Assembly: GCA_041905905.1 (NCBI GenBank)
Contig: JAYRKE010000009.1
Coordinates: 70,842 to 134,841, forward strand
Direction of reading: 5' to 3'
Source: Afipia sp.
GTDB lineage: Bacteria > Pseudomonadota > Alphaproteobacteria > Rhizobiales > Xanthobacteraceae
DNA length: 64,000 bases
The first letter of the stretch is position 1; every line of letters starts with the position of its first letter. Below are positions 1,258 through 29,741 of this stretch, in pieces. A program made the position numbers and the translations under genes. The notes below the pieces were generated by a model that was not told the DNA's origin, did no database searches, and saw only the letters and a list, made by a program, of their open reading frames with translations.

Positions 1258-1668
1258 ATGAGCTTGAATTCATCGACTGCCCCGTCGCGTTTCGATACGA
1301 ACATCAAAACGCATCGTCACACGACATGGCTTATCGTCATGATTGCTGGCGTAGTAATGCAAATGACTAGGGCGCCGGCTCAGGTTTCTGACCCCAACGC
1401 ATCATTGGCGGCAAAGGTTGCCGATGGACGTCCGTGGAAAATGACGATGGAAGATGGTCGTCCCGGCACCCTTATTCTTTTTCAGAATGGGACAGGCAAG
1501 ATGACGGGCGGACTGATGGAGTTGACTCCAAAATGGCGATCGACGCCGGATGGTCTTTGTCTCAAGCCGGGAGCACTGCTTCCTGAGCGTTGTGTGCAAT
1601 TGATTCGCACTAGTAATGGATATGTCGGGCTCCGAGAGGGCAAACAGACCTTCAAATTGGAACGGTAG
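1258..1668 (+). CDS. Hypothetical exported protein
   Basis: AAGGAG RBS before ATG 1258; hydrophobic segment WLIVMIAGVVMQM followed by a soluble beta-rich region. No family recognised. Confidence 0.55.
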   Translation: MSLNSSTAPSRFDTNIKTHRHTTWLIVMIAGVVMQMTRAPAQVSDPNASLAAKVADGRPWKMTMEDGRPGTLILFQNGTGKMTGGLMELTPKWRSTPDGLCLKPGALLPERCVQLIRTSNGYVGLREGKQTFKLER

Positions 1669-1703
1669 TGCGCGCCTTCCGAAATGGATGAGGAGGAAAG
1701 GTC

Positions 1704-2144
1704 ATGGTGTCTGTCTGGACATCAAATCCGGTGATTAAAGTACTTTCTGGAATCGCGATCCTGTTCGGAATAGCTACGCTTGTTTCCGGAGGGCGTGCTC
1801 TTTTTGAGCTACATGGGACAGAAAATTCGGCGGCAAAAATTGTGCCTTTCGTATTGTATTTCAATTTTGCAGCCGGCTTTGCGTATATTATCAGCGGCGT
1901 TGGATTGATTCTGAAACGCAGGTGGGCGCCCGTATCTGCGGTGGCAATTACTATAGCGACCACCATAGTCTTTCTTGGTTTAGGTGGCTGGATATTGGCA
2001 GGCAACGCTTACGAAATGCAGACTGTCGTCGCGATGAGCCTGCGAACGGCATTTTGGTTTGGCGTAAGCGTCATTTCATCAATTAGATGCCGTGAATACT
2101 CGCTTTCGCCCGATGCACAAAACGATCCACCATCGAACCAATAA
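1704..2144 (+). CDS. Small integral membrane protein (about 4 TM), paralog of 11979-12356
   Basis: GAGGAGGA RBS; hydrophobic helices; motif SGGRALF...VPFVLYFNFAAGFAY shared with 11979-12356. Confidence 0.75.
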   Translation: MVSVWTSNPVIKVLSGIAILFGIATLVSGGRALFELHGTENSAAKIVPFVLYFNFAAGFAYIISGVGLILKRRWAPVSAVAITIATTIVFLGLGGWILAGNAYEMQTVVAMSLRTAFWFGVSVISSIRCREYSLSPDAQNDPPSNQ

Positions 2145-2774: not shown

Positions 2775-3081
2775 TATCTGGATGGCAAGTGATTATGCAT
2801 GGCATGTCAGCAGATTTAACAGGATGTTCATGCACAGGCTGAGCACCTTCTCTGCTGCCTGACGGTCTGGCAAGGCAACCCTCAATCACGCTTCGCGCCA
2901 TGATCTCTCGACCTTTCGGCACTGAGAGGCACATTTTTATGCCTGACCATTCGGTCTTCAGGAGATTGGCTAAAGCTTCGACAACCGCAGCCTCTTCGTT
3001 CATGTTCGGATGGCCCCCCCCTGAAAGCTCACATCTAGCCCCGCGGTCGCTGCGTAAAAGAAGGGATACGGGTCTTCGGTT

Positions 3082-4200
3082 TCATTGGAGGCGTCCTCGG
3101 ACGAATACCGTCGCCATCGTTAGCGTGGCCAAGGCGATGATCGCCAGCGGCCACAGGCTAGCGAGAATGTCACCGGGCGGCATGGCTTTGAGAAAGCTGC
3201 CTTCGACAATGATGAGGAAGTGGGTCAGCGGAATGGCCTGGGCCAGCCATTGCAGGACCACTGGCATGTTTTCTACCGGTGTAGCAAAGCCGGACATCAG
3301 TACCGCCGGCACGCCAATGGCGAATGCACCCAGAATGGCCTGCTGCTGCGTCATGCTAACCGCGGAAATCATGAGGCCGATGCCGACCACCGACAGGATG
3401 AATAGCACCAGGCTCGCAAGCAGCAACCCGAACGAGCCGGTAAAGGGAATGCCGAACAAAAACACGCCTGCACTGATCATGAAAAGACCCAGCAGGGTGC
3501 CGATCGCTAGCGCCGGCAGTGACTTTGAAATGATGATTTCCGGCGTTGAGGTAGGCGACACCAGTAACTGGTCGAAGGTGCCCAACTCGCGTTCGCGCGC
3601 AATCGACAGCGAGGTGATGAGCAGCGCGCTGAACAGCGCCAGAATACCCGTAAGACCGGGTACGATGAACCAGCGGTAGACCAGGTTCGGATTGAACCAG
3701 TGACGCACGACCACAGGTGTTAGCGCTTGCGCGTCGGGCACGACTTCGGCGCTGACATCGGCCGCTATGGTGGACAGATAGGCGACAGTGATCTGACCGG
3801 AGTTGCTGCGCCGGCCATCGACCAGCACCTGTGTGCGGCCGCTGTCACCGGCAGCAATCGTGCGTGAAAAATCGACTGGGATGGCAAGCGCGGCGATCAC
3901 CTCGCCTCGGTCGATCAACTCGTGTAGATGCCGCTGGCTGTCCACGTGCCGGACTTGGGTGATGAAGCGGGCGCTATTCAGGCGCTGTACCAGTTCGTGC
4001 GACCAGCGGCCCGCATCCTGGTTATACACGGCGATGTCGACATTGCGCACTTCCAGCGTTGCGGCAAAAGCGAACACGAGCAGTTGCAGGATGGGCGGCA
4101 CAAACACCACCATGCGGCTGCGCGGATCGCGTAGGACGCTGAGAATCTCCTTGATGAACTGCGCCCGCAATCGGGTGAAGCTGAAGATGGAGCTGGGCAT
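3082..4200 (-). CDS. ybhR: ABC-2 type exporter permease (YbhR-like)
   Basis: WFNPNL, IARERELGTFDQLLVSP, MSGFATPVENMP motifs; start taken at ATG 4200 (MPSSIFS). Confidence 0.9.
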   Translation of the reverse strand: MPSSIFSFTRLRAQFIKEILSVLRDPRSRMVVFVPPILQLLVFAFAATLEVRNVDIAVYNQDAGRWSHELVQRLNSARFITQVRHVDSQRHLHELIDRGEVIAALAIPVDFSRTIAAGDSGRTQVLVDGRRSNSGQITVAYLSTIAADVSAEVVPDAQALTPVVVRHWFNPNLVYRWFIVPGLTGILALFSALLITSLSIARERELGTFDQLLVSPTSTPEIIISKSLPALAIGTLLGLFMISAGVFLFGIPFTGSFGLLLASLVLFILSVVGIGLMISAVSMTQQQAILGAFAIGVPAVLMSGFATPVENMPVVLQWLAQAIPLTHFLIIVEGSFLKAMPPGDILASLWPLAIIALATLTMATVFVRGRLQ

Positions 4201-4204
4201 GGGC

Positions 4205-5374
4205 CTACTCCAGGTTCTTGCGTGTGGCGCGCTGGGCAAGGATGAAAAACACGACACCGATGGCAGCCATCGCCAATAGATTGCGAGTGAATACCGTCCA
4301 GATATCTCCGGCCAGGAACACCGTCTTGAGCGATTCGACGAAGTAGCGCGCCGGAATCAGCCGGGTAATGGCGCGGATCGGTGCCGGCATGGCGTCAATC
4401 TCGTACAGGAAGCCCGAGAGCATGAAGGCTGGCAAAAAGCCAGTGAACAGCGCGATCTGCGCCGCCAGAAACTGGTTGCGCGCCAGCGATGAGATGAGCA
4501 GACCTTGACCCAGCGCCGGTGCCATGAACACCGCCGACAGCAGTAGCAGCGCTGCCAGCGAGCCGCGCAGCGGCACACCACACCCGAACACGGCCAGCGC
4601 TGCCGCACCCAACGTGGACAGCATGCCGAGCACGAAATACGGCAGTAGCTTGCCGATCAGGATTTCTACCACCGAGGCGGGCGTGGACAGCACGGCCTCC
4701 ATGGTGCCGCGTTCCCATTCGCGCGCCACCACCAGCGCGGTCAGCATGGTGCCGATGATGGTCATCACAATGGCGATGGCGCCGGGGATCAGCGCGCGGC
4801 GGCTCTCGAGTTCGGGGTTGAACCAGTAGCGCGGCTCCAGCACCACGGCCTGGGCGGGCGCTGCAACATCAAGCCCCGCGCGCCAGCTTTGGACCACACC
4901 CCGGGCATAGTTTTCGACGTAGTTGGCGGTGTTGGGATAGGAGCCATCGGTGATGATTTGCACCAGCGGTTCACTGCCCCGCTGGGCCAGACGTCGCTCG
5001 AAGTCCTGCGGGATCACCACGTAGCCACGCAACTCGCCGGAGACGAGCTTGTCGGCCACTTCGCGCCGGTCGTGGGCAAAGTGCGCATCCAGAAAGCGGG
5101 TACCGGAAAAAGCGGCAGCCAACTCTTGCGCGGCGGCGCCGGGTGATTCCAGCACTACGCCGACGCGGACATCCTTGGCATCCAGCGACACTGCATAGGC
5201 AAACAGCAGCAGCAAGACCACCGGCAACACGAACGCGATCAGCAGCGTCGACGGGTCGCGCAGCGCCTGCAGGCTTTCTTTGTAAACCAGTGCCGTGAGG
5301 CGCTGCAGGTTGAAGCGGCGCAGGCTGGCTCGCCTCGCACTATCTCCGTCCTTGGATCGTGGGGCGGCGTTCAT
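4205..5374 (-). CDS. ybhS: ABC-2 type exporter permease (YbhS-like)
   Basis: RDPSTLLIAF, WFNPELES, AREWERGTMEAVLSTP, LSGFLYEIDAMP. Confidence 0.9.
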   Translation of the reverse strand: MNAAPRSKDGDSARRASLRRFNLQRLTALVYKESLQALRDPSTLLIAFVLPVVLLLLFAYAVSLDAKDVRVGVVLESPGAAAQELAAAFSGTRFLDAHFAHDRREVADKLVSGELRGYVVIPQDFERRLAQRGSEPLVQIITDGSYPNTANYVENYARGVVQSWRAGLDVAAPAQAVVLEPRYWFNPELESRRALIPGAIAIVMTIIGTMLTALVVAREWERGTMEAVLSTPASVVEILIGKLLPYFVLGMLSTLGAAALAVFGCGVPLRGSLAALLLLSAVFMAPALGQGLLISSLARNQFLAAQIALFTGFLPAFMLSGFLYEIDAMPAPIRAITRLIPARYFVESLKTVFLAGDIWTVFTRNLLAMAAIGVVFFILAQRATRKNLE

Positions 5375-7152
5375 GCGGTCGCTTCCATTTCACGGTCTGC
5401 GGACTCCACCAGATGAATGAAGGCATCCTCCATGGTCGGATCCGGCCGCTCGGCATTGGCGGTGACACGCTTGAGCGCATCGGGGGTATCCAGCGCAATG
5501 AGTCGGGCACGCGAGAGCATGGCCACCCGGTCGCAGTATTCGGCCTCGTCCATGAAGTGGGTGGTAACCATGATGGTCACGCCCTTGCGCGCCAGGCCGT
5601 TGATGTGAGTCCAAAATTCACGTCGGGTGATGGGATCCACGCCCGAAGTGGGTTCGTCGAGGAACAGCACGGGAGGCCGATGCATGAGCGAGCATGCCAG
5701 TGCCAGGCGCTGCTTGTGCCCCAGCGGCAGGGAATCGGGCGTGGCGGACAACCAGTCGCCCAGATCGAAGGTTGCTATCATCTCCTCGATGCGTTCGCGT
5801 CGTGTATCCCCGTCCAATTGATACACCCCGGCCGAGAACTCCAGGTTTTGCCGCACCGAGAGCAGGCCATAGAGCGAAAACTTTTGCGCCATGTAGCCAA
5901 GTCGGCTCTTTGCCGCGCCGGTCGCTCGGCGCAAATCGTGCCCCACCACATGCGCCTCACCTGCGGTCGGCTTAAGCAGGCCGCACAGCATCTTGAAGGT
6001 GGTGGATTTGCCGGCGCCGTTGGGCCCGAGCAGGCCAAAGATTTCGCCCTTTTGGACCTCGAAGCTGACGTTGTCGGTGGCGGTGAATTCGCCGAAACGC
6101 TTGGTGAGATTCCGACAAGACACGGCAATATCGGAACCCAGTTCGACCGGTGGCAGGCGCTCGGCCAGGGCTGAGGTGCCACCGGGGCCGCCGCCGAGCA
6201 GATCGATGAAGGCGTCCTCGAAGCGAGCGGGTACCGGCGCCAGCCGCACTTGCGCCTGATCGGCCAGCGCCTGGATCTGCTTCGCTTGCGCGCCGTCGCG
6301 CAGCACTACGCGCACGCCAGCCCCCTGAATCACGCCATCGCTCACGCTGTCGAGATCGAGTGCTTCGGTCAGGACCGCCCGGCGCTCGGCGCCCACGTCT
6401 TCCAGACGGAAACTGCGACCTTCGAGCTGTGCAGTCAGTTCTTGCGGCGGGCCATCGAACAAGAGTTGGCCCTGGTTCAGCAACAGCACACTCTCGCAGC
6501 GCTCAGCCTCGTCAAGATAGGCGGTAGACCAGACCACCGCCATGCCTTCGTCGGTGAGTGCCTGTACCATGCGCCACAAATCCTGGCGGCTGACCGGATC
6601 GACTCCTACTCCGGGCTCATCCAGCAAGAGGACCTTGGGCCGCGCCATGAGCGCACAGGCCAAGCCCAGCTTCTGTTTCATACCACCGGAGAGCTTTCCA
6701 GCCAGACGCTTGGTAAAGGGGCCAAGCCGCGTGAAGTCGAGCAACTCAGCAAACAGATCGGCGTTGCGGTCCGCGTCCATGCCGCGCAACTGTGCATACA
6801 GGCGCATGTTCTCGATCACTGACAGGTCTTCATACAAACCGAAGCGCTGCGGCATGTAACCACTGGCGACGTGAATGGCGTCGTTGTCCCGCACCACGTC
6901 GTACCCGGCCAACGTGACGTGGCCGGCGTTGGGTGCCAGGAGGCCGGTCAGAATCCGCATCAGCGTCGTCTTGCCAGCGCCGTCCGGGCCAACCAGACCC
7001 GTCAATCGCCCGTAGTGGATGCGCGCACTCAAATTCCGCAAGGCCCGTACGTCGCCAAAATGCTTGTCCACACCTTCGATCACGACGGCTGCGGCATCTG
7101 CGTTTGCGTTCGAGCTGTTCGGCGCAGCTGCAATAACGGCGCTCGCTTGCAT
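5371..7152 (-). CDS. ybhF: Double-domain ABC ATP-binding protein (YbhF-like)
   Basis: Two Walker A motifs (GPDGAGKTT, GPNGAGKST), LSGGMKQKL, LLDEP/FLDEPT; 4-bp overlap with the permease. Confidence 0.93.
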   Translation of the reverse strand: MQASAVIAAAPNSSNANADAAAVVIEGVDKHFGDVRALRNLSARIHYGRLTGLVGPDGAGKTTLMRILTGLLAPNAGHVTLAGYDVVRDNDAIHVASGYMPQRFGLYEDLSVIENMRLYAQLRGMDADRNADLFAELLDFTRLGPFTKRLAGKLSGGMKQKLGLACALMARPKVLLLDEPGVGVDPVSRQDLWRMVQALTDEGMAVVWSTAYLDEAERCESVLLLNQGQLLFDGPPQELTAQLEGRSFRLEDVGAERRAVLTEALDLDSVSDGVIQGAGVRVVLRDGAQAKQIQALADQAQVRLAPVPARFEDAFIDLLGGGPGGTSALAERLPPVELGSDIAVSCRNLTKRFGEFTATDNVSFEVQKGEIFGLLGPNGAGKSTTFKMLCGLLKPTAGEAHVVGHDLRRATGAAKSRLGYMAQKFSLYGLLSVRQNLEFSAGVYQLDGDTRRERIEEMIATFDLGDWLSATPDSLPLGHKQRLALACSLMHRPPVLFLDEPTSGVDPITRREFWTHINGLARKGVTIMVTTHFMDEAEYCDRVAMLSRARLIALDTPDALKRVTANAERPDPTMEDAFIHLVESADREMEATA

Positions 7153-7153
7153 C

Positions 7154-8185
7154 TCAACGTTTCCCTATGGGACCGGGCTTAGCATCAACCTCGATCGTCA
7201 CCGGCATGCCCTGGCGCAAAGCGGTGTCATGATCGGCTTCGTCGATGACGATGCGCAGGCGATACACCAGGTCCGTGCGCAAATCCGTCGTCTCCACCGT
7301 CTTGGGTGTAAATTCGGCGCGCGGTGAGATAAAGCCGATCTGACCGCGATAAATCTTTCCCGCAGAATCGCTCTTAACACGCACCGCGGTGCCGGGCGCG
7401 ATCCGCCCCAAATCCGGCTCACCGATGTAAGCGCGCACGTACACAGGCTTGTCCAGACTCAGGCTGTAGACCGTGCTCTGGCTCGCAACCATACTGCCGG
7501 GTTCACGTACCCGCGCGATAACGGTTCCGTCACTGGGTGCCATCAATTCGGTATCCGCAAGAGAGATAGTGGCTTGCGCCTGTGCTGCTTGCGCGGCAGC
7601 GAGACGTCCGGCCGCAGCGGCGATGTCCTCCTCGCGAAAACCTTCGAATGCCTGCGACAGCGCAGCCTTGGCTGCCTCAACGCTAGCGGCTGCCTGGTCT
7701 CGAGCCGTGCGGGCGGCGTCGGCTGCGCGCTGGGTAGTGGACCCTGACGCAAGCAGACTGCTTTGACGCTGATAGTTGCGCTCAGCGTCAATGGCGACAA
7801 CCTGCGCCTGTTTGAGCGCCTCTCGCGCCTGGGTAATTTCCTGCGGACGCAAACCGCGGCGCAGTTTGGCGAGTTCTGCCTGCGCCACCTGCACCTGAGC
7901 CTGCGCTGCAGCAAGTGCAGCACGATAGGGCTGCGCATCAAGAGCGGCCAGGCGTGTGCCGGCGCTGACGGCATCGCCCTCATCGAAAGCCATTTGAGCC
8001 ACGCGCCCAGGCTGACGAAAGGCCAATTGCACCTCGCGGATGTCGACGTTGCCATAGAGGCGTAGCAGGTCAGTATTCTTGTTGGTGCGCTGTATCCATA
8101 AGAACGCAGCACCAAGACCCAGGACGAAAACCGCCCCGAAGACGATCGCCAGTTTCGCGGTGCGAGAGGAAGCAATTTTGATCAT
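7154..8185 (-). CDS. ybhG: HlyD family membrane-fusion protein (YbhG-like)
   Basis: N-terminal TM, LYGNVDIREV, coiled coil, FISPRAEFTPKTVETTDLRTDLVYR, LRQGMPVT. Confidence 0.92.
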   Translation of the reverse strand: MIKIASSRTAKLAIVFGAVFVLGLGAAFLWIQRTNKNTDLLRLYGNVDIREVQLAFRQPGRVAQMAFDEGDAVSAGTRLAALDAQPYRAALAAAQAQVQVAQAELAKLRRGLRPQEITQAREALKQAQVVAIDAERNYQRQSSLLASGSTTQRAADAARTARDQAAASVEAAKAALSQAFEGFREEDIAAAAGRLAAAQAAQAQATISLADTELMAPSDGTVIARVREPGSMVASQSTVYSLSLDKPVYVRAYIGEPDLGRIAPGTAVRVKSDSAGKIYRGQIGFISPRAEFTPKTVETTDLRTDLVYRLRIVIDEADHDTALRQGMPVTIEVDAKPGPIGKR

Positions 8186-8273
8186 CGCATGCGTCCCATC
8201 CGCTCAATTCCAACGAGCTTTATGGTGCGCTGGTTCGACGTTGGCTCGCCGAGAGCATGGACGTAGAGAGCTT

Positions 8274-8897
8274 TCATTGCGCCGCTTCAATGCCGCGGCG
8301 ATAGATGGCAAACACGGCTGGTGCCTCGCGACGAATCCGATTGACCTTGCCGGCCAACAATGACTGCATGACCAATCCTTGGATGGTACCAATGAACAGC
8401 ACGGCGGCAGCATCCACGTCCAGTTCCGCGTCCAACTCGCCATGCGCCTTGCCTTCTTCCATCAAGCGGCGCAGTCGCTGTTCGTATTGACGGATTAAGG
8501 TCTGCACCATGCGCTTCGCGAGCGTCTCGCCAGAGCGCTGTAGCTCCCCGAACAGCATGCGTGGCACGCCAGGATGTTTGGCCACGAAGTCGATATGCGT
8601 CATGAACATGGCTTCGAGCGCCGCAACAGGGGATGCGGCGCCTTCGGCCGCCTTGTCCACGCTGATCAGCAACCGTTCGCTGACCCAGGACATCGTTGCT
8701 TCCAGGATCGCGTCCTTGTTGGGGAAGTGACGAAATAGCGCACCCTGCGTCAAACCCATCCGATCAGCGATAGCCGCGGTCGTGATCTCGGCCGGATTTT
8801 GCTGGGCTGCCAGGTCGACCACGGCTTGCACTGTGGCGGCTCGGCGCTCGTCGGCGGGCAGGTATTGAGAGCGATCATTCACGATCTGGAACTCCAA
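8274..8897 (-). CDS. TetR/AcrR family transcriptional regulator
   Basis: HTH TTAAIADRMGLTQGALFRHFPNKDAI; first gene of the exporter operon. Confidence 0.92.
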   Translation of the reverse strand: MEFQIVNDRSQYLPADERRAATVQAVVDLAAQQNPAEITTAAIADRMGLTQGALFRHFPNKDAILEATMSWVSERLLISVDKAAEGAASPVAALEAMFMTHIDFVAKHPGVPRMLFGELQRSGETLAKRMVQTLIRQYEQRLRRLMEEGKAHGELDAELDVDAAAVLFIGTIQGLVMQSLLAGKVNRIRREAPAVFAIYRRGIEAAQ

Positions 8898-8903
8898 AAA
8901 GCA

Positions 8904-8923
8904 GGTGATTTGTTACTATCTTA
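8904..8923 (-). promoter_or_regulatory. Putative TetR operator upstream of tetR
   Basis: Minus strand TAAGATAGTAACAAATCACC is 17/20 identical to the site at 9158-9177 upstream of phaC. Confidence 0.6.
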
Positions 8924-9157
8924 GCACTCAAAATAACCTTTATGGAAGAAAGAGAATTTGGTTATTCGGCACGGGATTGAGTCTGGTTTTGATGTTCGGG
9001 AATGAGCGGTTTGGTTCGGAGTGGTTTGTGGCGTCGTTACGGCTCAAGCCGTATCGAAGAGCTCTTGTGCCGACGTCAGTCAGGAAGCGAGCCGTGCGCA
9101 CTGATGCCAGAAACGGTTATCTGATGAGATGTGGGTTGCATATCCTAGTATGATCTA

Positions 9158-9177
9158 TAAGATAGTAACAGATTACT
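9158..9177 (+). promoter_or_regulatory. Putative TetR operator upstream of phaC
   Basis: TAAGATAGTAACAGATTACT containing the dyad AGTAA-CAGA-TTACT, ending 22 bp before the phaC ATG. Confidence 0.6.
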
Positions 9178-9199
9178 CGCTAATTAAAAAGAGCTGGAG

Positions 9200-10960
9200 A
9201 TGAACACTGTTGACATGGTCAACGAGCTCGCACCGACTTCGTCTGAAAGTACGCCGCCCGATACCTTGGATGCGGTTGCGAACGCCTGGCGGGCGCGAGG
9301 CACCGGCGGGTTGTCGCCGGCGGCGGGCTTGTTGGCGTGGTACGATTGGGCTCTGCACCTGAGTCTTTCGCCGGGCAAGCAGCGCAACCTGCTGGAAAAG
9401 GGGCTGCACAAGCAGCAGCGACTTGCGCGTTATGCAGTGCGAGCGGCAAGCGCACGCGACTGCCCGACTTGCATTGAGCCGCTGGAGCAGGATCGGCGGT
9501 TCGCCGATCCTGCCTGGCAGCAATGGCCCTTCAACGTGATCCACCAGAGCTTCTTGCTGCAGCAGCAATGGTGGCATAACGCCACCACCGGCGTGCGCAG
9601 CGTGTCCAGCCATCACGAGAGATTGGTCACTTTCGCCGGGCGGCAGTGGCTCGACATGTGGTCGCCGGCCAATTTCATTTGGACCAACCCCGAGGTACTG
9701 CGCGCCATTACGGACAGCGGTGGCGTCAGTCTGTGGCGCGGTGCAATGAATTTCCTTGACGATGCGCGGCGTCTTGCGCTGGATGGTACGCCAGCAGGGG
9801 TCGAAAGGTTCGAGGTTGGCAAGGACGTGGCGGTCACGCCAGGAAAGGTGGTGTACCGCAACCACCTGATCGAGCTGATCCAATACACACCCACGACGCC
9901 CGATGTGCATGCCGAGCCGGTCCTGATCGTGCCGTCCTGGATCATGAAGTACTACATCCTCGACCTGTCGCCGCACAATTCGATGGTGAAGTATCTGGTC
10001 GGCCAAGGGCATACGGTTTTCATTATTTCATGGAGAAACCCGACCGCGGTCGATCGTGACCTCAGCCTGGACGACTACCGGCGGTTGGGGGTCATAGACG
10101 CATTGGATGCGGTTACGGCCATTGTCCCCGAGCGTAAGGTGCAAGCGGTCGGCTATTGCCTGGGCGGTACCTTGTTGGCGATCGCTGCTGCTGCGATGGC
10201 GCGCGATGGTGACGAACGTCTGCAAAGTTTGACGCTGCTGGCGTCTGAGACCGATTTTCGTGAATCTGGCGAGATCGCGCTTTTCATCGACGAGAGCCAA
10301 CTGGCGTGGCTCGAGGCCGGCATGTGGGACAAGGGTTATCTTGACGGCAGGCAGATGGCTGGCGCGTTCCAGATGCTCAATTCGCGTGACCTGATCTGGT
10401 CGCGACAGGTTCGCGAATACCTGTTGGGTGAGCGGCAAGTCTTCAACGATCTGATGGCCTGGAATGCCGACGTGACTCGCATGCCGTATCGCATGCACAG
10501 CGAGTACCTGCGGCAACTGTATCTGCGCAACGATCTGGCAGAGGGACGCTATCAGGTCGACGGGAGGCCGGTGGCGCTCGCCGACATCGACGTGTCCATG
10601 TTCATCGTCGGCACGGTGCGCGACCACGTCGCGCCCTGGCCCTCTGTGTACAAGATGCACCTGCTCAGTGATGCGGAGTTGACCTTCGTGCTCACCAGCG
10701 GCGGGCACAACGCCGGCGTGGTCAGCGAGCCGGGGCATCCCCGGCGCAGCTTCCAGATTGCCACCCGTGCCGCCGGCAAGCGCTACGTCGATCCGCAGAT
10801 GTGGCGCGCCGAGACTCCTTTGCACGAGGGTTCCTGGTGGCCGGCCTGGCAGCAGTGGTTGGCGCAGCGCTCGGCCGGGCGCGTAGCGCCACCTGCCATG
10901 GGCGGCAGCACGTACACACCACTTGGCGACGCGCCCGGGACATACGTGGCAATGACGTGA
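9200..10960 (+). CDS. phaC: Poly(3-hydroxyalkanoate) synthase, class I-like
   Basis: TPGKVVYRNHLIELIQY, KYYILDLSPHNS, lipase box GYCLGG, DHVAPW (Asp), SGGHNAG (His), GSWWPAW; catalytic triad intact. Confidence 0.93.
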   Translation: MNTVDMVNELAPTSSESTPPDTLDAVANAWRARGTGGLSPAAGLLAWYDWALHLSLSPGKQRNLLEKGLHKQQRLARYAVRAASARDCPTCIEPLEQDRRFADPAWQQWPFNVIHQSFLLQQQWWHNATTGVRSVSSHHERLVTFAGRQWLDMWSPANFIWTNPEVLRAITDSGGVSLWRGAMNFLDDARRLALDGTPAGVERFEVGKDVAVTPGKVVYRNHLIELIQYTPTTPDVHAEPVLIVPSWIMKYYILDLSPHNSMVKYLVGQGHTVFIISWRNPTAVDRDLSLDDYRRLGVIDALDAVTAIVPERKVQAVGYCLGGTLLAIAAAAMARDGDERLQSLTLLASETDFRESGEIALFIDESQLAWLEAGMWDKGYLDGRQMAGAFQMLNSRDLIWSRQVREYLLGERQVFNDLMAWNADVTRMPYRMHSEYLRQLYLRNDLAEGRYQVDGRPVALADIDVSMFIVGTVRDHVAPWPSVYKMHLLSDAELTFVLTSGGHNAGVVSEPGHPRRSFQIATRAAGKRYVDPQMWRAETPLHEGSWWPAWQQWLAQRSAGRVAPPAMGGSTYTPLGDAPGTYVAMT

Positions 10961-11069
10961 CATGGCCACCCGCGGCGGAGACAGAACTGCCGCGGTTTGA
11001 TCGGGCCACCTCGCAAGGAATGGCCCACACCTGCCCCCATGGGGCACAACGTGACCGTGGAGCACTGCA

Positions 11070-11513
11070 ATGAACAACGAACTGCCCATCCAACTCTACA
11101 AGGCCAATGCCGAGCTACAGCTACAGATCACCCGTTTGCTGCAAGAGAGCGGACATTGCTGGCTAGAAGCCATGCAACAGCTCAGCGCTGGTAGCGTAGA
11201 GGAGACCACCGCACGCATCCAGGGTCTCCAGCAGGCGGCAGACTGGCAGGCGCTCGCAACCTTGCCGTCCGAGGTGTTCCGGTGCCTGTATCAGGGCCGC
11301 GTTGGCGATGCCCAAGCAATCGCTCAAACGACCGCCAAGAGCCAGGCCGCCTTTGTCGATGGCCTGCGCCAGGCGCTCACGACTTGGCAGGGATCTGTAT
11401 CCGAGGCATTCGGTACCAGCGGTGACTCAGCTCCCTTTGTGCAGCTTTTTCAACCATGGGCACAGCCCTGGTCGGCGCCAGCCGCGACGCCCCAGAGCAA
11501 GGCCGAAAAGTGA
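11070..11513 (+). CDS. phaP: Phasin family protein
   Basis: 147-aa Ala/Gln-rich amphipathic helical protein (LYKANAELQLQITRLLQES) between phaC and phaB. Confidence 0.7.
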   Translation: MNNELPIQLYKANAELQLQITRLLQESGHCWLEAMQQLSAGSVEETTARIQGLQQAADWQALATLPSEVFRCLYQGRVGDAQAIAQTTAKSQAAFVDGLRQALTTWQGSVSEAFGTSGDSAPFVQLFQPWAQPWSAPAATPQSKAEK

Positions 11514-11523
11514 GGAGGTCACT

Positions 11524-11842
11524 ATGAGTACCTCTCGGCGAACGGCCCTGGTGACCGGAGGCAACCGGGGATTGGGCGCCGCTATCGCCCGTGCTCTGCA
11601 CGATGCCGGCCACCGCGTGATCGTCACGCATACGCCGGGCAACACCACGATTGACCAGTGGCAGCAAGCGCAAGCAGCACAGGGTTATATATTCGCCGCC
11701 TACGGGGTGGATGTGTCCGAATATGAATCGACGCAGGAACTGGCGCGGCGCATCCATGCCGATGGTCATCGGTTCGATATCCTGATGAAACAACGCCGGC
11801 ATTACCCGCAATGCCACGCTGCGCAAGCTCGACAAGGATTGA
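11524..11842 (+). pseudogene. phaB: Acetoacetyl-CoA reductase, frameshifted and truncated
   Basis: ALVTGGNRGLGAAIA start; an extra A at 11788-11790 shifts the NNAGITRNATLRKLDKD segment out of frame; TGA at 11840-11842; YxxxK region absent. Confidence 0.85.
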
Positions 11843-11978
11843 AGCCGCCGCCCAAGCCGCCGGTATTCGATCCCACGATCGCGAAGTTCTATGAAAGCCC
11901 GACCACAGCAAACTATGACACCCGCCATCATCAAGGCCGCTGCTGTCCGGTATAGCAGGGGCGAGGATCAACAGAGCC

Positions 11979-12356
11979 ATGACCGATAGACCGTTCCCGA
12001 TCACGATCGCCGCCATTGTTGCTGTGATCTTCGGTATCCTGACCATCATCTCGGGCGGGCGTGCATTGTTTGGCGGAGTGGACATGGGGGCAGTCGTGCC
12101 CTTCGTCCTGAAGTTCAATTTCGTCGCCGGCTTTGCCTATGTGCTGGCGGGCATCGGGCTGTGGCGCATGGCGAGGTGGGCGGGGGCGCTGTCCGTCGTG
12201 ATCGCGGTGGCGACTGCGGTGATGTTCGCCGCCTTCCTGTGGCATGTCTGGCATGGTGGCGCCTATGAGGTGCGCACCCTGGGCGCCATGTCGCTGCGCC
12301 TCGTCGTCTGGATCGTCATCGCGACTATCGCGATTAAACGCGGATTGCGCCGCTGA
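11979..12356 (+). CDS. Small integral membrane protein, paralog of 1704-2144
   Basis: SGGRALF...VPFVLKFNFVAGFAY...AYEVRTLGAMSLR; about 4 TM helices. Confidence 0.8.
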   Translation: MTDRPFPITIAAIVAVIFGILTIISGGRALFGGVDMGAVVPFVLKFNFVAGFAYVLAGIGLWRMARWAGALSVVIAVATAVMFAAFLWHVWHGGAYEVRTLGAMSLRLVVWIVIATIAIKRGLRR

Positions 12357-12394: not shown

Positions 12395-13099
12395 CTAGAC
12401 GGCCCGGCCAATAAGGGCGCCGATCACAGCGGTCGATGCCATGGCAACAGCGCCCCAGAACACGACCCGAAAAGTGGGTTTCCATATGCTGGCGCCGCCC
12501 GCTTGCGCGCCAATGGTCCCAAGGGCGGCAAGCCCGATGAGGCAGGCGATCGACACCGTCCAGACGGTTGTTCCTGCCGGTGAAAGCAGAGCGATAACCA
12601 ACGGCAACGCAGCGCCGGATGCGAATGTCGCCGCGGACGTGAAAGCTGCCTGAACCGGCCTGGCCATCATGTGGCTCGACAGTCCGAGCTCATCCCTCGC
12701 ATGCGCCGCGAACGCGTCTTTCGCCATCATCTGCTCGGCAACCTGCCGGGCCAGTTCGGGCGTCACGCCACGCTCCTCATAGATCTTTGCCAGTTCCTCC
12801 AGCTCTGCTTCAGGCTGCGTGGACAGTTCGTAACGCTCACGCGCCATGTCGGCTTCTTCCGTGTCAGCCTGGGAACTGACCGATACGTATTCACCCGCTG
12901 CCATCGACATCGCTCCGGCCACCAGCCCGGCGACACCGGCAACGAGGATATCATGAGACGTTGCTGTTGCAGCGGCGACGCCGACGATCAGGCTCGACGT
13001 CGAAATCAGACCGTCATTGGCTCCCAGCACCGCGGCACGAAGCCAGCCTATTCGTTCGATCAGATGGTTTTCTTTGTGAAGGGTGCGCATGGGCTGCAT
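12395..13099 (-). CDS. VIT1/CCC1 family Fe/Mn transporter
   Basis: WLRAAVLGANDGLISTSSL, SMAAGEYVSVSSQAD, HARDELG, SAATFASGA. Confidence 0.92.
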   Translation of the reverse strand: MQPMRTLHKENHLIERIGWLRAAVLGANDGLISTSSLIVGVAAATATSHDILVAGVAGLVAGAMSMAAGEYVSVSSQADTEEADMARERYELSTQPEAELEELAKIYEERGVTPELARQVAEQMMAKDAFAAHARDELGLSSHMMARPVQAAFTSAATFASGAALPLVIALLSPAGTTVWTVSIACLIGLAALGTIGAQAGGASIWKPTFRVVFWGAVAMASTAVIGALIGRAV

Positions 13100-13309: not shown

Positions 13310-14203
<894 letters not shown>

Positions 14204-23699: not shown

Positions 23700-23873
23700 C
23701 TACTCCTTCCATCGCGGGCGCATCTGCTGCCCGCCGCTCGTGTCGTAGTCCGACTTCGTGTCGAAAAATCCTGATGGCTTATGGTGCGGCGCGGGCGCAC
23801 GGCCAAACCACAGGCCTCCGCCGACGGCGAGCGCGACAATTGCGACAATAAGGAGGAGCGAGGCCGGCTTCAC
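23700..23873 (-). CDS. trbK: Entry-exclusion protein TrbK (57 aa, not in ORF track)
   Basis: Hand translation MKPASLLLIVAIVALAVGGGLWFGRAPAPHHKPSGFFDTKSDYDTSGGQQMRPRWKE; located between trbJ and trbL with GTGA overlap. Confidence 0.85.
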   Translation of the reverse strand: MKPASLLLIVAIVALAVGGGLWFGRAPAPHHKPSGFFDTKSDYDTSGGQQMRPRWKE

Positions 23874-24673
23874 CACCTCGGCTCCATCGTTTGGCCGCCG
23901 GTGGTCGACGGCGCCGTCGAGGTAAAGAACTGATCGCGGCGCGCCTGCGCGAGATCGTCCTTCGCCTGCTTCGATTGGAACCAGGTTCCCATCATCGCGA
24001 CCTGTTGCGCAAAGAGACCGCGCAGCTTTTGGGTTTGGGCCACCTGTTGCGCGGCGATCTGATGCCCGACCTGCAACGCCTTCATCTGGCCATCGGCCGA
24101 CTGCGACATGCTGCGGAGCTGCCCCATTGTCGCTTCTTCGGAGGTAAACTGATCGGAGGTCAGCCCCGCCGCCTTCAAGGTCGCACCGATCGTGTCGCGG
24201 TTCGTCGTCGACCAGTTCTGCCAGGTCGACGAGAAGGTCGAGCCGGTTGGCAGATTGGTCTTGAAGTCGGCGTAGCTCTTGAAGCGCTGCTTCAGGACAT
24301 CATCGGCATTGCCCATCGAGAAGGCGATGCCCTGCCCTTGCCCGACGATGTTGCGCAGCTGGTTGAGGTCTCTCTCGACCTGGCCCCAAACGTGCTGCGG
24401 CAGCCGGGCGGTGTTCTGCAACATATTTTCGTATATTCGCAGCTGGTTTTGGATCTGTTGGGAGAGCTGCGCGATTTGCGTAATTTGATTGTTGATCTGT
24501 TCGGTCGATTTGCCGACCATTGCGATCAGTTCAGAATTGTTCAACAGCTGGGTCCACTCGGTTGCGCCACCGGCGAGCGCGCCGCCCCCGCCGGCCGCCG
24601 CGGGCGTCGCCGCGAGGACACTGGACAGGACCGCAATAATTGCCGGGTTACGCTGATAACAACGTGTCGGCAT
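23870..24673 (-). CDS. trbJ: P-type conjugative transfer protein TrbJ (VirB5)
   Basis: GGATEWTQLLNN, QIQNQLRIYENMLQNT, GQMKALQVG, C-terminal GGQTMEPRW. Confidence 0.92.
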   Translation of the reverse strand: MPTRCYQRNPAIIAVLSSVLAATPAAAGGGGALAGGATEWTQLLNNSELIAMVGKSTEQINNQITQIAQLSQQIQNQLRIYENMLQNTARLPQHVWGQVERDLNQLRNIVGQGQGIAFSMGNADDVLKQRFKSYADFKTNLPTGSTFSSTWQNWSTTNRDTIGATLKAAGLTSDQFTSEEATMGQLRSMSQSADGQMKALQVGHQIAAQQVAQTQKLRGLFAQQVAMMGTWFQSKQAKDDLAQARRDQFFTSTAPSTTGGQTMEPRW

Positions 24674-27086: not shown

Positions 27087-27094
27087 CGCCGGCC

Positions 27095-27394
27095 TCAGTA
27101 TTTTCGCCAGGGCGTGGACGTCGGCCGATAGTGCGACCGGTAGCGGATATGCCGCAAATAGACATGCCGCATCATCGGATCGAGCTTCGCCATCATGCGC
27201 AGAACGCCGACGATGCCGCTCCACACCAAGAGTCCCAGCAGAACGGAGAACCAGGTCAGGACCACAAAGATTAGAATGACGGCGGCTAGCCCGGTCATCA
27301 GCACGAGTTCGCGGTCCGCACCCAGCAGTAGGTTCGGACGCGACAGCGCGCGATGGATCCGCGAGTGATGGAGATTGGAGAACGGCTCAGCCAT
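27095..27394 (-). CDS. trbD: Conjugal transfer protein TrbD (VirB3)
   Basis: [34 protein letters not shown]. Confidence 0.92.
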
Positions 27395-27746
27395 GCGGAA
27401 GGGCCCCCGGCTCGCTGGCCTCGACCGTACCGATCGATGCGCCAGACGCGCCGAACAGACCGACGATCTGCGTGGCGCCAAGCAAGATGCCGGCGACCAG
27501 GACGACGTACATTAGCCGCCGCGCGAAATCGTTGAGCTCGCCGCCGAAAATGAGCATGCCGCCGGCGACCGCGACCGCCGCCAGCGCGATGAAGCCGGCG
27601 ACAGGACCGGTGATCGATTGCTGAATCTGCTGGAGCGGACCTTCCCAAGGCAGGCCCCCTCCCCCGCCCGCCAATGCGGGTTGCACAGCGAGCGACAGCG
27701 CGACACATGTGAGGAGACCAAGTGCTAGGCGACGTTCAGGCGACAC
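27387..27746 (-). CDS. trbC: Pilin TrbC (VirB2)
   Basis: Signal peptide then [31 protein letters not shown]. Confidence 0.9.
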
Positions 27747-28698
27747 GTTGCTCCTCCTCGCGGCAAGATTGGATTCGATATTCACCGTGAGCGAAGCCCT
27801 CGACGTGAAGGATGTCGCGCACGATGCGGCCACGCGCGGTCTTCTCGATCGAGACAATCAGGTCCACGGCTTCGCCGATGACGGCTTGCATCTGCTGCTG
27901 ACTTGCTTCGGCTGTGAGCTGCTCAAGCCGTGTCAGCGCGGACATCGCCGAATTCGCATGAACTGTGGTGATGCCGCCGGGGTGGCCGGTGTTCCAACTT
28001 TTTAGCAGCGTCAGCGCAGCGCCGTCCCTGACCTCGCCAACAATGATGCGGTCGGGACGCAATCGCATCGTCGACTTCAACAGCCGGCCCATATCGATCG
28101 TATCGGTCGTATGAAGCGCTACGGCATTGTCGGCGACGCATTGCAACTCGGCCGTGTCCTCGAGGATCACGATGCGATGCTCCGGCGCGGAGGCGACCAT
28201 CTCTGCGATTACTGCGTTGGTGAGCGTGGTTTTGCCGGAGCCTGTGCCGCCCGAGATCACGATGTTCATCCGCGAGGTCACAGCGTTGCGGATCATGCGT
28301 GCCTGATGCTCTGTCATGATCCGATCGCGCACATAGGCGACGAGTGGGATCACCTGCGACGCGCGCCGACGAATAGCAAAGGTCGGTCCGGACACGACCG
28401 GCGGCAGCAGTCCTTCGAAACGATGTGCGCCGATCGGCAACTCACCGGAGACGATCGGACGTTCGTCGTCGACCTCGGAATTGAGCGCATGGGCGACGCT
28501 GCCGATGATGATCTCGGCCGCGGCGTTGCTCATCTGACCGACGCGGGCGATGCCCTGCCCGAGGCGCTCAACAAACAGATGCCCGTCGGGATTGCACATG
28601 ACCTCGACGACGCTCGGATCGTCGAGCGCCGTGCAGATCGTGTCGCCGAGCGCCTCTTGCAGCTTGCGGACGAGACGCGGATGAGAGCGCAGTTGCAC
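27736..28698 (-). CDS. trbB: P-type conjugative transfer ATPase TrbB (VirB11)
   Basis: [38 protein letters not shown]. Confidence 0.95.
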
Positions 28699-28713
28699 CG
28701 AACGCCTCCCGCC

Positions 28714-29340: not shown

Positions 29341-29408
29341 CGTGTTGCCCCCGCCATTCACTTCGATCTCAGGCGACAAGACGAACACGCGGGTTTCGGT
29401 CTGTCAGA

Positions 29409-29425
29409 CCGTCGAATCCGACAGG
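29409..29425. promoter_or_regulatory. Putative tra box (TraR site) 1
   Basis: CCGTCGAATCCGACAGG, dyad GTCG-AATC-CGAC, centred about 77 bp upstream of traI; exact repeat at 29505-29521. Confidence 0.7.
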
Positions 29426-29504
29426 TATGCTGCGCTGAGTCGCACGAGAGGACGCCGAGCGTTGACGGCGCGGCGCCGTCCAGCTGAAAGGTGACACCGC
29501 AAAC

Positions 29505-29521
29505 CCGTCGAATCCGACAGG
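29505..29521. promoter_or_regulatory. Putative tra box (TraR site) 2
   Basis: Identical 17-mer CCGTCGAATCCGACAGG, 96 bp from copy 1, in the traI-repA divergent intergenic region. Confidence 0.7.
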
Positions 29522-29741
29522 CCGCCTTGCGGCGAGGGAACACTCCGCACATACGCAGTAAGCGATTGAGATATAGGGCAGTCATGGAGACGCTCGGCTG
29601 GTCGACCGACGGCGTCACGCCGAGCGATTAAGGTTTCGTTAACCCTATTCTCCTTGCCACGCCGGGAGAATCGCACATACTGGCGCTAAATTGGGTTAGG
29701 TGCCGCATTCTGGCGCTATTTTATTCTCGGAGTCGATTAAA

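Follow-up and report, generated by a model that had tools for sequence, protein, structure and literature searches.

A divergent class I-like PHA synthase and a YbhGFSR-type exporter in a truncated plasmid-borne module with a candidate shared TetR operator

PHA synthesis is usually described as being under PhaR/PhaD-type or global regulators. The classical class I operons are represented by phaCAB of Cupriavidus necator, with the phasin PhaP and the regulator PhaR. Pseudomonas putida PhaD is reportedly a TetR-family regulator of the pha cluster; it is an activator of the mcl-PHA genes and is not known to be tied to an efflux operon, and its likeness to the regulator considered here, as a TetR-family protein controlling PHA genes, is one of description only. 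On the efflux side, the E. coli cecR(ybiH)-ybhGFSR operon encodes a regulator, an adaptor, a double-NBD ATPase and two ABC-2 permeases, in the same order as the operon described below, and cecR faces the divergent rhlE. The substrates given for E. coli YbhGFSR in the available text of two reports are cefoperazone, chloramphenicol, tetracycline and Na+/Li+ (PMC12998191, PMC7190983), and these cannot be assumed for the exporter analyzed here.

The lxa locus of Burkholderia cenocepacia and the Bcc contains, in the available text of its descriptions, a class I-type PhaC, an acetoacetyl-CoA reductase, a phosphate acetyl/butyryl-transferase, an acetate kinase and universal stress proteins (USPs); ABC, adaptor (HlyD) and outer-membrane transporter genes lie a few genes from these, and the lxa genes are all induced at low oxygen (PMC3721108, PMC4981469). 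The same text places lxa on the chromosome as an island of 50 genes, with Anr/FNR-type control presumed to act through a TGA-N6-TCA motif; it mentions no TetR and describes no operator common with phaC, unlike the module analyzed here. The original prediction knew of no described link between PHA synthesis and this exporter type. This was nearly right, since that text does not discuss the pairing, although it does list PhbB-PhaC-Pta together with ABC/HlyD/OMP genes.

We analyzed a 64-kb stretch of DNA, referred to in its entirety as the window, in which tetR-ybhGFSR was predicted to face away from phaC and phaP. Coordinates, strands and domain searches confirmed this layout, with 302 nt between tetR and phaC (Table 1), and a thiolase gene (phaA), likewise predicted to be missing, was not found in the PHA/exporter locus.

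Table 1. Features of the PHA/exporter locus and its surroundings in the window.
Feature	Coordinates	Strand	Basis or remarks
Displaced small-gene pair	1258..2144	+	Putative secreted protein and second 4-TM paralog
Second 4-TM paralog	1704-2144	+	Homology to relatives
ybhR-like ABC-2 permease	3082..4257	-	Pfam ABC2_membrane_3, E 3.5e-41
ybhS-like ABC-2 permease	4205..5374	-	Pfam ABC2_membrane_3, E 6.3e-47
ybhF-like double-NBD ATPase, 593 aa	5371..7152	-	Two ABC_tran stretches, E 2.4e-62
ybhG-like periplasmic adaptor, HlyD family	7154..8185	-	NCBIfam NF002939
TetR-family regulator, first gene of exporter operon	8274..8897	-	TetR_N and TetR_C domains
Candidate operator copy A, adjoining tetR start	8901..8921	-	PWM 23.9 bits; conserved island
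Inferred phaC promoter	9136..9163	+	TTGCAT 9136-9141, 16-nt spacer, TAAGAT 9158-9163
Candidate operator copy B, upstream of phaC	9160..9180	+	PWM 25.5 bits; 9/10 core match
PHA synthase PhaC, 586 aa	9200..10960	+	PhaC_N, PHBC_N, alpha/beta hydrolase domain
Phasin, 147 aa	11070..11513	+	Pfam Phasin_2, 29.3 bits vs cutoff 24.9
PhaB-like SDR remnant (pseudogene)	11524..11837	+	tblastn of 248-aa L023 SDR
Small 4-TM membrane protein, 125 aa	11979..12356	+	Beyond breakpoint; family accompanies tetR/phaC in relatives

Sequence comparison identifies the exporter genes as orthologs of E. coli ybhGFSR. The adaptor scored 471.5 bits against the YbhG equivalog model NF002939 (cutoff 393) and is 50% identical to E. 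coli YbhG; the double-NBD ATPase is 57% identical to YbhF over 571 aa; the two permeases pair S-to-S (47% identity to YbhS vs 30% to YbhR) and R-to-R (41% to YbhR vs 28% to YbhS); and the gene order is that of a YbhGFSR-type system. A colinear DNA match to the ybhS-ybhF-hlyD locus was found in 5424/5426 E. coli genomes. The ybhR-like reading frame is listed from a GTG at 4257, and its true start is probably the ATG at 4200, giving ~372 aa as in relatives.

The regulator sets the window apart from the E. coli operon. The window TetR (PF00440, E 6.5e-11, plus several TetR_C models), for which a start at the GTG at 8882, with GGAG upstream and 202 aa as in relatives, is likelier, is not orthologous to CecR: a blastp comparison with the E. 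coli protein yielded no match at E 0.01 or better, and among the best 60 of its 76 matched solved structures no CecR-named chain was present and SlmA proteins ranked best (E 1e-14). It shares ~90% identity with the phaC-adjacent TetRs of two relatives (L003 and L023) and 75% with the regulator of a sphingomonad exporter operon that lacks phaC; the operon that the window TetR faces consists of phaC and the PHA genes. Relatives of the window locus further differ from the E. coli operon in having a dedicated outer-membrane factor gene, which follows ybhR, and small membrane proteins. The outer-membrane factor gene is absent from the window copy, where DNA homology to relatives stops at 3061-3082, just past the ybhR stop codon.

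The PHA synthase has an N-terminal PhaC domain (PF07167, E 3.7e-58; PF12551, E 8.9e-17), an alpha/beta hydrolase core (PF00561, E 1.8e-11) and a putative Cys-Asp-His triad, as in the classical class I enzymes; alignment with the motifs of the solved PHA synthase 9knj (E 2e-103) places this triad at the lipase box GYC(320)LGG, Asp475 and His503. The class I model TIGR01838 gave 540.1 bits, which is below its cutoff of 622.65 and still far higher than the class II (352 bits) and class III (126 bits) models, so that the window PhaC is best described, on these profile scores, as belonging to a divergent class I-like clade. More distant relatives on Paracoccus, Halomonas, Bosea and Burkholderia plasmids carry only the PGAP label "alpha/beta fold hydrolase". 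As in the classical operons, the module places a phasin and a PhaB-type reductase with the synthase; it differs from them in having neither phaA nor PhaR, in sharing its putative TetR control with an efflux pump, and in that the operon of the relatives runs into pta/ack-type genes. The phasin, for which an NCBIfam search returned no match, has copies with 75-88% identity after phaC in nearly all relatives whose PhaC is >=82% identical, the exceptions being L019 (60% identical) and L018 (none found), and its presence in the operon points to intracellular granules. Protein identity exceeds DNA identity both for PhaC against L023 (95%, with ~89% for the surrounding DNA) and for YbhF against L003 (95% and ~84%), which is consistent with purifying selection on these two proteins.

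The reductase gene, predicted to be a phaB, proved to be a stub. A tblastn search with the SDR of L023 returned two HSPs in different frames, covering residues 1-88 in frame and, after a +1 frameshift near 11789-11793, residues 89-104; thus 104 of ~248 codons remain, residues 105-248 are absent, and TIGR01829 matches at model positions 1-84 only. In SDR enzymes the catalytic residues lie beyond residue 104. Nucleotide homology to all relatives ends at ~11806-11837, mostly at 11835-11837, and the pta/ack and USP genes, which in relatives lie past this breakpoint, are absent from the window locus. Both junctions, at the end of ybhR and at 11837, are real: contigs that cross them come from four independent metagenome runs on wastewater, sludge and bioreactor samples, and no indels were reported there in the junction-spanning stretch. 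The stub phaB and the missing outer-membrane gene indicate that the copy in the window has been cut down from a larger mobile module; it is carried on the repABC/Trb-type plasmid backbone of a wastewater bacterium. The window locus is a piece of cargo, now eroded, on a conjugative plasmid, and annotations should not list its "reductase" as functional.

The 125-aa 4-TM protein beyond the breakpoint, for which no Pfam or NCBIfam family was found, has homologs with 40-57% identity in 24 clade loci, located either directly after phaC or in the interval from tetR to ybhG. The displaced pair at 1258-2144, whose putative secreted protein lies in a reading frame at 1132-1668 (with 1258 taken as the start for scanning), is homologous to the gene pair found after the phaC-side tetR in Kaistia and Rhodopseudomonas faecalis. 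Positions 1417-2069 share 69% nucleotide identity with three relatives (L001, L002 and L023), to whose counterparts the pair has 58-63% protein identity, and in these relatives an operator copy lies upstream of the pair.

We surveyed the neighborhoods of phaC, as the original prediction had proposed, by tblastn of 80 phaC loci and an NJ tree, counting an exporter when it lay within 10 kb. A YbhGFSR- or RbbA-type exporter accompanied 28/34 members of the window's PhaC clade and only 2/46 loci outside it. The pairing is therefore real and conserved, not chance, and the predicted co-inheritance holds, with the exporter kept near phaC in >=4 gene arrangements: divergent tetR-(membrane gene)-ybhGFSR-OEP, as in L003; an inverted exporter accompanied by a second TetR of its own (Kaistia, R. 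faecalis); a convergent exporter after pta-ack (Eoetvoesiella); and a downstream tetR-hlyD-fused RbbA-like ABC (Rhodobacterales). Most of the 21 close divergent relatives (PhaC >=82% identical) probably share their layout through recent horizontal transfer, and to that extent they are not independent observations. Each half also occurs alone. On sphingomonad plasmids, TetR-exporter operons without phaC adjoin ars/czc genes, with exporter genes 76-78% DNA-identical to those of the window and the same operator, while in L020, L022 and L025 a clade phaC has the operator and no exporter was found within 10 kb.

The shared operator, also part of the original prediction, was borne out as a strong candidate by comparison with the relatives. 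It is a ~20-bp palindrome with the core TAGTA-N6-TACTA, present as two inverted copies in the spacer; copy A is one arm of a 24-nt inverted repeat, I1, with arms at 8900-8923 and 9158-9181. In a spacer alignment of 22 relatives the two palindromes are the sole conserved islands, and copy B overlaps the conserved phaC -10 hexamer and the expected transcription start. The operator upstream of phaC is kept even in clades with 66-78% PhaC identity. When 1.56 Mb were scanned on both strands with the operator PWM, sites of >=14 bits were almost exclusive to the promoters of this gene set, with one off-target: they lie upstream of phaC, beside tetR and upstream of the small membrane genes, and they also precede the second tetR-ybhGFSR operon (L002/L023) and a LysR gene (L003 group). 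Upstream of the TetR-exporter operon on the sphingomonad plasmids without phaC (L083, L084) the palindrome is perfect, and in L020, L022 and L025 an operator-like site precedes phaC, with no TetR found within 10 kb. The case for the operator rests on this comparison with relatives, as a window-only palindrome test gave 1 match at >=9/10 against 1.55 expected in 64 kb, which is not above chance. The window copies score lowest in the clade (~24-25 bits vs 32-38), which could reflect decay.

The TTGC and TA-GAT of the inferred phaC promoter are conserved in the alignment of the relatives. A sigma-70 scan found no phaC promoter; the inferred site matches 7/12 consensus positions, which is too weak for it. 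In activated-sludge cDNA, contigs cover tetR, phaC, the phasin gene and the 11837 junction; in this run there were no contigs in 8847-9182, and one contig begins at 9183, just downstream of the inferred phaC -10.

Taken together, we think it fairly probable that a single TetR regulon co-induces PHA synthesis and efflux in parallel, and that the window carries a truncated copy of this mobile module. The TetR, encoded by the first gene of the tetR-ybhGFSR operon, would bind the ~20-bp palindrome as a repressor, keeping both divergent operons off when no ligand is present. A small-molecule ligand, most likely a lipophilic pump substrate or an acyl metabolite, would free the repressor from the DNA and so turn on the YbhGFSR-type tripartite ABC-2 pump and the PHA synthase with its phasin together. 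In full-length relatives the PHA operon also includes a PhaB-type reductase and a phosphate acetyl/butyryl-transferase, to which some of them add an acetate kinase, a USP and a lipase-like hydrolase: L003 has USP and PTA genes, L021 has, at matching positions, ORFs whose sizes fit PTA and AckA (assigned by size and position, not by domains), and L023 has MaoC-PTA, AckA and a patatin. The two halves may form a survival package for stress or energy limitation, like the low-oxygen lxa locus of Burkholderia, with which the full-length relatives share a gene set (USP, PTA, AckA, OEP); the lxa transporters BCAM0302-0305, in the available text, are likened by description only. Unlike lxa, the window locus has no USP, pta or ack. 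An FNR-like box, TTGAT-N4-CTCAA with 1 mismatch, lies in the spacer of nine beta-type relatives, and no Anr/FNR-type box (TGA-N6-TCA) was found upstream in the window, where the best match has 3 mismatches. In the window, the dead phaB and the lost pta/ack imply that PhaC would depend on (R)-3-hydroxyacyl-CoA made by the host, and the loss of the outer-membrane factor that the pump would depend on a TolC-like channel of the host.

Parallel rather than serial working is suggested because either one, pump or synthase, is found elsewhere under this operator without the other. Under serial coupling, the idea suggested by the original prediction, a product of the PhaC pathway (a 3-hydroxyacyl compound, a 3-hydroxyacid oligomer or short PHB) would leave through the pump, and an intermediate such as 3-hydroxyacyl-CoA would be sensed by the TetR. 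The persistence of the pump near this PhaC clade through >=4 rearrangements would fit such a coupling, as would the uncharacterized small membrane and secreted proteins in the same operator set and the weak similarity of the TetR to acyl-CoA-binding FadR-type regulators and to the YsiA C-terminal domain. Yet the TetR-exporter-OEP operons beside ars/czc genes do without phaC, three clade phaC genes under the operator have no pump within 10 kb, and the operon phasin implies that the polymer stays in the cell as granules. Export of the PhaC product, oligo-3HB for example, is unsupported. To our knowledge, E. coli makes no PHA granules, and it has orthologs of the pump with 41-57% identity; moreover, no biosynthetic or tailoring enzymes specific to a secreted product were seen. 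We therefore regard serial coupling as quite improbable. Its more specific form, in which the PhaC pathway has an outlet in the pump together with the regulon's small membrane and secreted proteins, through which 3-hydroxyacid oligomers or a 3-hydroxyacyl-derived lipid leave when the TetR senses accumulating hydroxyacyl-CoA, is the least probable of the readings considered here and highly doubtful; if true, the module would make a secreted polyester-derived product or act as a redox overflow valve, and would not only form granules.

It could also be that the TetR controls its own pump operon only and that phaC is adjacent merely as cargo of the same ICEs and plasmids. The block travels horizontally as one unit, since close relatives with 82-95% PhaC identity are found across Alpha-, Beta- and Gammaproteobacteria; the L003 block adjoins a TraG coupling-protein gene, the window locus sits on a repABC/Trb backbone, and either half is found alone elsewhere. 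Mere co-transport would not explain, however, why the operator over the phaC -10 is conserved down to 66-78% PhaC identity while the remainder of the spacer is not, or why it is kept where tetR-exporter is not divergent from phaC (L021, L024, L028, L029, L031). In L002/L023, too, the exporter has moved and been inverted, and yet each of the two sides, phaC and exporter, retains an operator copy and a TetR paralog of its own. We thus consider simple hitch-hiking distinctly unlikely. That the window locus is a decaying remnant with no current role is suggested by its frameshifted and truncated phaB, its lost pta/ack and outer-membrane factor genes and its operator copies, the weakest in the clade, as well as by other gene fragments nearby, such as a CzcA C-terminal stub at 13310-13720. 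This is also unlikely: seven genes are intact, with 79-95% protein identity to relatives, four independent metagenomes contain this same truncated arrangement, and activated-sludge cDNA contigs match the locus, one of them across the 11837 junction.

From these comparisons, a distinct, horizontally spreading PhaC clade appears to be wired into the regulon of an efflux-pump repressor. Wastewater and sludge communities are used for industrial PHA production. If co-induction by one TetR is true, PHA genes of wastewater and sludge bacteria would be subject to a new kind of control logic, phaC would have a candidate natural switch that responds to an inducer, and the poorly understood YbhGFSR pumps would become easier to approach. 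Such co-induction may also offer a possible link between the two unexplained parts of the lxa locus, its PHA genes and its ABC transporter genes.

The five minus-strand genes at 3082-8897 are closely packed, and a spacer of 302 nt separates tetR from the divergent phaC operon on the plus strand. The original prediction had placed an exporter, a TetR-family regulator, PhaC, a phasin and a reductase here. The first four were found as described, whereas the reductase proved to be a mere pseudogene stub, in a module that is truncated.

Features of the module in the window, and small four-transmembrane (4-TM) protein genes in fetched loci of relatives (handles beginning with L)
Feature	Position	Strand	Remark
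Single-NBD ABC ATPase	84-707	plus	82% protein identity to L012 1024-1383 (minus)
Small protein, probably secreted or membrane-anchored	1132-1668	plus	Grouped with a 4-TM paralog; ybhR about 1 kb to the right
4-TM paralogs, window	1704-2144, 11979-12356	plus	Two diverged copies flanking the module
ABC-2 permease (YbhR-like)	3082-4257	minus	Probable start 4200
ABC-2 permease (YbhS-like)	4205-5374	minus	
ATPase with two nucleotide-binding domains (YbhF-like)	5371-7152	minus	
HlyD-type adaptor (YbhG-like)	7154-8185	minus	YbhG equivalog model 471 bits vs cutoff 393
TetR-family regulator	8274-8897	minus	GTG at 8882 after GGAG is the likelier start
PHA synthase PhaC, 586 aa	9200-10960	plus	PhaC_N, PHBC_N and hydrolase domains
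Phasin_2 protein, 147 aa	11070-11513	plus	
PhaB-like short-chain dehydrogenase	from 11524	plus	5' part only
4-TM gene, L003 (Diaphorobacter type)	8582-9073	minus	
4-TM gene, L023 (Kaistia adipata)	7726-8214	minus	
4-TM gene, L020	~11761-12114	plus	

Searched with the exporter DNA, 5424 of 5426 E. coli genomes gave the ybhS-ybhF-hlyD locus as the one best-matching place, and each protein had its own counterpart as the best E. coli match (YbhR 41%, YbhS 47%, YbhF 57% and YbhG 50% identity); by these comparisons the window exporter is a true YbhGFSR relative. The regulator was also considered as an ortholog of CecR, and this was rejected, as blastp against E. coli CecR gave no match; no CecR-named chain was present among the best 60 of its 76 solved-structure matches, in which SlmA proteins were nearest. 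PhaC aligns with a solved PHA synthase at Cys320 of the lipase box, Asp475 and His503, and it scores 540 bits against the class I model, under the cutoff of 622.65. Its more distant plasmid relatives are labelled merely "alpha/beta fold hydrolase".

Nucleotide homology to related loci ends on the left at about 3061-3082, just past the ybhR stop codon (alignment starts range up to 3342 where a relative's contig runs out), and on the right at about 11806-11837. Residues 1-88 of the dehydrogenase are in frame; near 11789-11793 the frame shifts by +1, and the next frame encodes residues 89-104. Since the sequence from 11837 is unrelated, the enzyme lacks residues 105-248, over half of its length. 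Beyond the reductase, Kaistia adipata encodes a MaoC::phosphate acetyl/butyryl-transferase fusion, an acetate kinase and a patatin-like lipase, while the matching end in Diaphorobacter encodes a universal stress protein (USP), a PTA/PTB enzyme and a 675-aa hydrolase, and both have an outer-membrane factor (OEP) gene past ybhR. The window locus is without the relatives' MaoC-PTA/PTA, acetate kinase, USP, lipase/hydrolase and outer-membrane factor genes. Both junctions are spanned by contigs of four independent wastewater, activated-sludge or bioreactor runs, with no indel reported in the stretch; the truncation is real and no artefact of assembly. Neither breakpoint showed a transposase or inverted-repeat ends among the flanking ORFs scanned (OsmC-like on the left; the 4-TM gene, VIT1 and the CzcA stub on the right).

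Around the module, the window is similar to conjugative plasmids of the repABC/Trb/TraI kind from Hyphomicrobiales (75-79% identity), with ars genes and other gene fragments. In the stretches ~23870-34800 and 52000-54400 the backbone is like that of repABC plasmids, having trbB/trbE/trbJ conjugation genes and a traI acyl-homoserine-lactone synthase (75-79% identity to plasmids of Ancylobacter, Bradyrhizobium and Afipia), and further along there is an ars cluster (arsB, arsC, arsH). An AbiEii/DUF6088 toxin-antitoxin-like pair at ~45950-47370 is 90% identical to an Ancylobacter plasmid. To the right of the module, an intact VIT1-family transporter gene (12395-13099, minus) adjoins a CzcA/AcrB-type RND pump stub (13310-13720, minus) that retains only the last ~115 residues, which again points to a patchwork of cargo fragments in this stretch of the plasmid.

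To survey the gene neighbourhood of this phaC clade, 80 loci of PhaC relatives (the best 80 of more than 592) were searched with the window proteins over 10-kb flanks. On a neighbour-joining tree of these synthases, 28/34 loci inside one clade are exporter-linked versus 2/46 outside it, which bears out the predicted pairing. The 23 closest relatives (82-95% PhaC identity), which are not independent counts, come from taxa as different as Kaistia, Rhodopseudomonas faecalis, Diaphorobacter, Comamonas, Thauera, Stutzerimonas, Dyella, Cupriavidus gilardii, Pseudoxanthomonas and Achromobacter, so the block must be horizontally mobile; its Diaphorobacter copy adjoins a TraG coupling-protein gene. The retention of the pairing through rearrangement is more telling than the counts of close relatives. 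In most beta- and gamma-type loci, phaC diverges from a tetR-(4-TM gene)-ybhGFSR-OEP unit. Kaistia and R. faecalis have an inverted exporter with a second TetR of its own, and the first TetR and two small genes still diverge from phaC; in Eoetvoesiella a convergent exporter follows PTA-/AckA-size ORFs 3' of the reductase; and in Rhodobacterales (66-69% PhaC identity) phaC-phasin and two small genes are followed by tetR-hlyD and an RbbA-like fused ABC-permease. By DNA identity the nearest match is the Kaistia type for the tetR-phaC side of the window (89%) and the beta type for its ybhGFSR side (84%); judged by these affinities, the window locus is itself a recombinant of Kaistia-type and beta-type parts. 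PLSDB held no near-identical plasmid, its best matches being 72-78% identical, each with one module half only, and the phaC relative on Paracoccus versutus pTAV3 has no exporter.

When the spacer was aligned across 22 relatives, the only conserved islands were two inverted copies of one ~21-bp motif, the putative TetR operator. In the window these lie at 8901-8921 and 9160-9180, as the core of a 24-nt inverted repeat; the most symmetric form is GTAAGTRATATATYACTTAC, with the core TAGTA/AAGTA-N6-TACTA/TACTT. Counted in the window by itself, the palindrome does not exceed chance (1 hit vs 1.55 expected), and the window copies have the weakest weight-matrix scores of the clade. When both strands of all the fetched DNA (1.56 Mb) were scanned with a weight matrix, sites scoring 14 bits or more were nearly confined to promoters of this gene set, with one off-target: they occur upstream of phaC (including the clades of 66-78% identity), beside tetR, upstream of the small membrane genes, 5' of the second tetR-ybhGFSR-OEP operon in Kaistia and R. 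faecalis, and 5' of the LysR gene closing the Diaphorobacter-type operon. This footprint supports one regulon, and the shared regulatory unit that had been predicted is thus backed by operator conservation across relatives. At the far end of the PHA operon in L003, the extra operator lies between the 675-aa hydrolase gene and the LysR-family gene, with matching sites at ~16730-16795 in L003, L004, L005 and L027, 16745 in L006, 11721 in L007 and ~17464 in L014 and L016; these copies suggest that the regulon may reach that regulator.

The phaC-side operator overlaps a conserved TA(A/T)GAT hexamer (9158-9163), and a conserved TTGCAT (9136-9141) lies 16 nt 5' of this hexamer. Together the hexamers match 7/12 consensus positions. 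Since a sigma-70 scan of the spacer and downstream region returned no site at threshold, the phaC promoter is placed solely by conservation and the start of a cDNA contig. An FNR/Anr-like TTGAT-N4-CTCAA box with one mismatch is present mid-spacer in nine betaproteobacterial relatives (L003-L007, L014-L016, L027; TTGATGCAACTCAA in L003), ~150-160 nt upstream of the phaC-side operator, and there is none in the window spacer or in alphaproteobacterial relatives. It hints at a further layer of low-oxygen control in the beta relatives.

The 4-TM proteins form a family of 125-163 aa found in 24 loci of this PhaC clade, where the genes are placed between tetR and ybhG or immediately 3' of phaC; an operator copy lies 5' of the 4-TM gene in L001, L002 and L023. 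The family had no Pfam or NCBIfam match, and Pfam at E values up to 10 gave nothing informative for the small membrane and secreted proteins. The small protein left of ybhR is 63% identical to a 129-aa ORF by the phaC-side tetR of Kaistia and R. faecalis (L023 8249-8638, minus), and it lies on the strand opposite to its L023 orientation; the left flank thus also derives from the same extended module, in rearranged form. The single-NBD ABC ATPase matches a gene beyond the exporter of L012 (Thauera aromatica LG356), in which a second 4-TM paralog lies at 6-362; the extended module may thus include a second ABC system, as in the lxa-like locus of B. contaminans.

Each half of the module also occurs by itself. 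Sphingopyxis and Sphingobium plasmids carry TetR-HlyD-YbhF-S-R-OEP operons with exporter genes 76-78% identical in DNA to those of the window and, in Sphingopyxis, a TetR 75% identical in protein; these operons have the perfect palindrome TAGATAGTAATCTATTACTATCTA upstream, ars and czc genes alongside and no phaC. Conversely, in L020, L022 and L025 phaC is preceded by an operator-like site, with no exporter or TetR within 10 kb. These two sets of loci, together with the E. coli orthologs and the phasin discussed below, speak for an autonomous TetR-pump unit whose regulon has probably taken in the PHA operon. In the phaC-less sphingomonad plasmids L083 and L084 the TetR-exporter-OEP operon lies between czc and ars clusters and ends with a class I SAM-dependent methyltransferase gene (6663-7523 and 6621-7481, respectively, both minus), a setting that is a possible clue to the pump substrate.

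The original prediction had also envisaged a serial arrangement, in which the pump exports a PhaC-derived compound. Product export is unsupported, nothing positive having been found for it, and is the less likely reading: the pump operon lies behind the palindrome on phaC-less plasmids, phaC stands behind an operator-like site in loci lacking the exporter, and to our knowledge E. coli makes no PHA granules, yet has orthologs of the pump. Moreover, the PHA operon encodes a phasin, a hallmark of intracellular granules. Given these observations, we argue that co-induction of the pump and the PHA operon is to be favoured over export of a product.

The nearest known gene set is the low-oxygen-activated (lxa) locus of Burkholderia cenocepacia, which partly matches the full module: both encode PhaC, PhaB, a phosphate acetyl/butyryl-transferase, an acetate kinase and a universal stress protein, as well as an ABC pump with adaptor and outer-membrane factor, although the lxa ABC genes were compared by description only. 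The lxa locus includes BCAM0296 (reductase), BCAM0297 (class I synthase, 224-fold), BCAM0298 (Pta) and BCAM0293 (Ack), induced by low oxygen, and BCAM0302-0305, two ABC proteins, a transport protein and an outer-membrane protein, rise up to 80-fold in low oxygen (PMC3721108); HlyD and ABC genes are also listed for the counterpart stretch in B. contaminans and B. multivorans (PMC4981469). The authors propose that PHA synthesis is an electron sink and that Pta-Ack yields residual ATP, and a later review suggests that the ABC genes may add to antibiotic resistance (PMC12071387). The available text of these sources does not discuss the PHA-ABC pairing or describe a TetR operator. An lxa-like island on B. 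thailandensis plasmid p1 encodes MaoC-PTA, PhaC, Ack and a thiolase but has no ABC-2 exporter in the ~68 kb checked. The PHA cluster of the published phn island contains an import-type ABC system and was set aside as unrelated. No relevant title or abstract was found for a divergent PHA synthase, ABC transporter, TetR and phasin. Both kinds of system, a YbhGFSR-type pump under TetR control and a PHA/fermentation module resembling lxa, are already known.

The window copy retains seven intact genes. Its PhaC has 95% protein identity to relatives versus ~89% in the surrounding DNA, and its YbhF 95% versus ~84% DNA identity, which is consistent with purifying selection. In an activated-sludge cDNA run, contigs at least 97% identical cover tetR, phaC, phasin and the 11837 junction, none falls within 8847-9182 and one begins at 9183, just 3' of the inferred -10, these contigs indicating presence only, as DNA may be included. 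The window copy of the module is probably expressed, and it must draw (R)-3-hydroxyacyl-CoA and an outer-membrane channel from its host.
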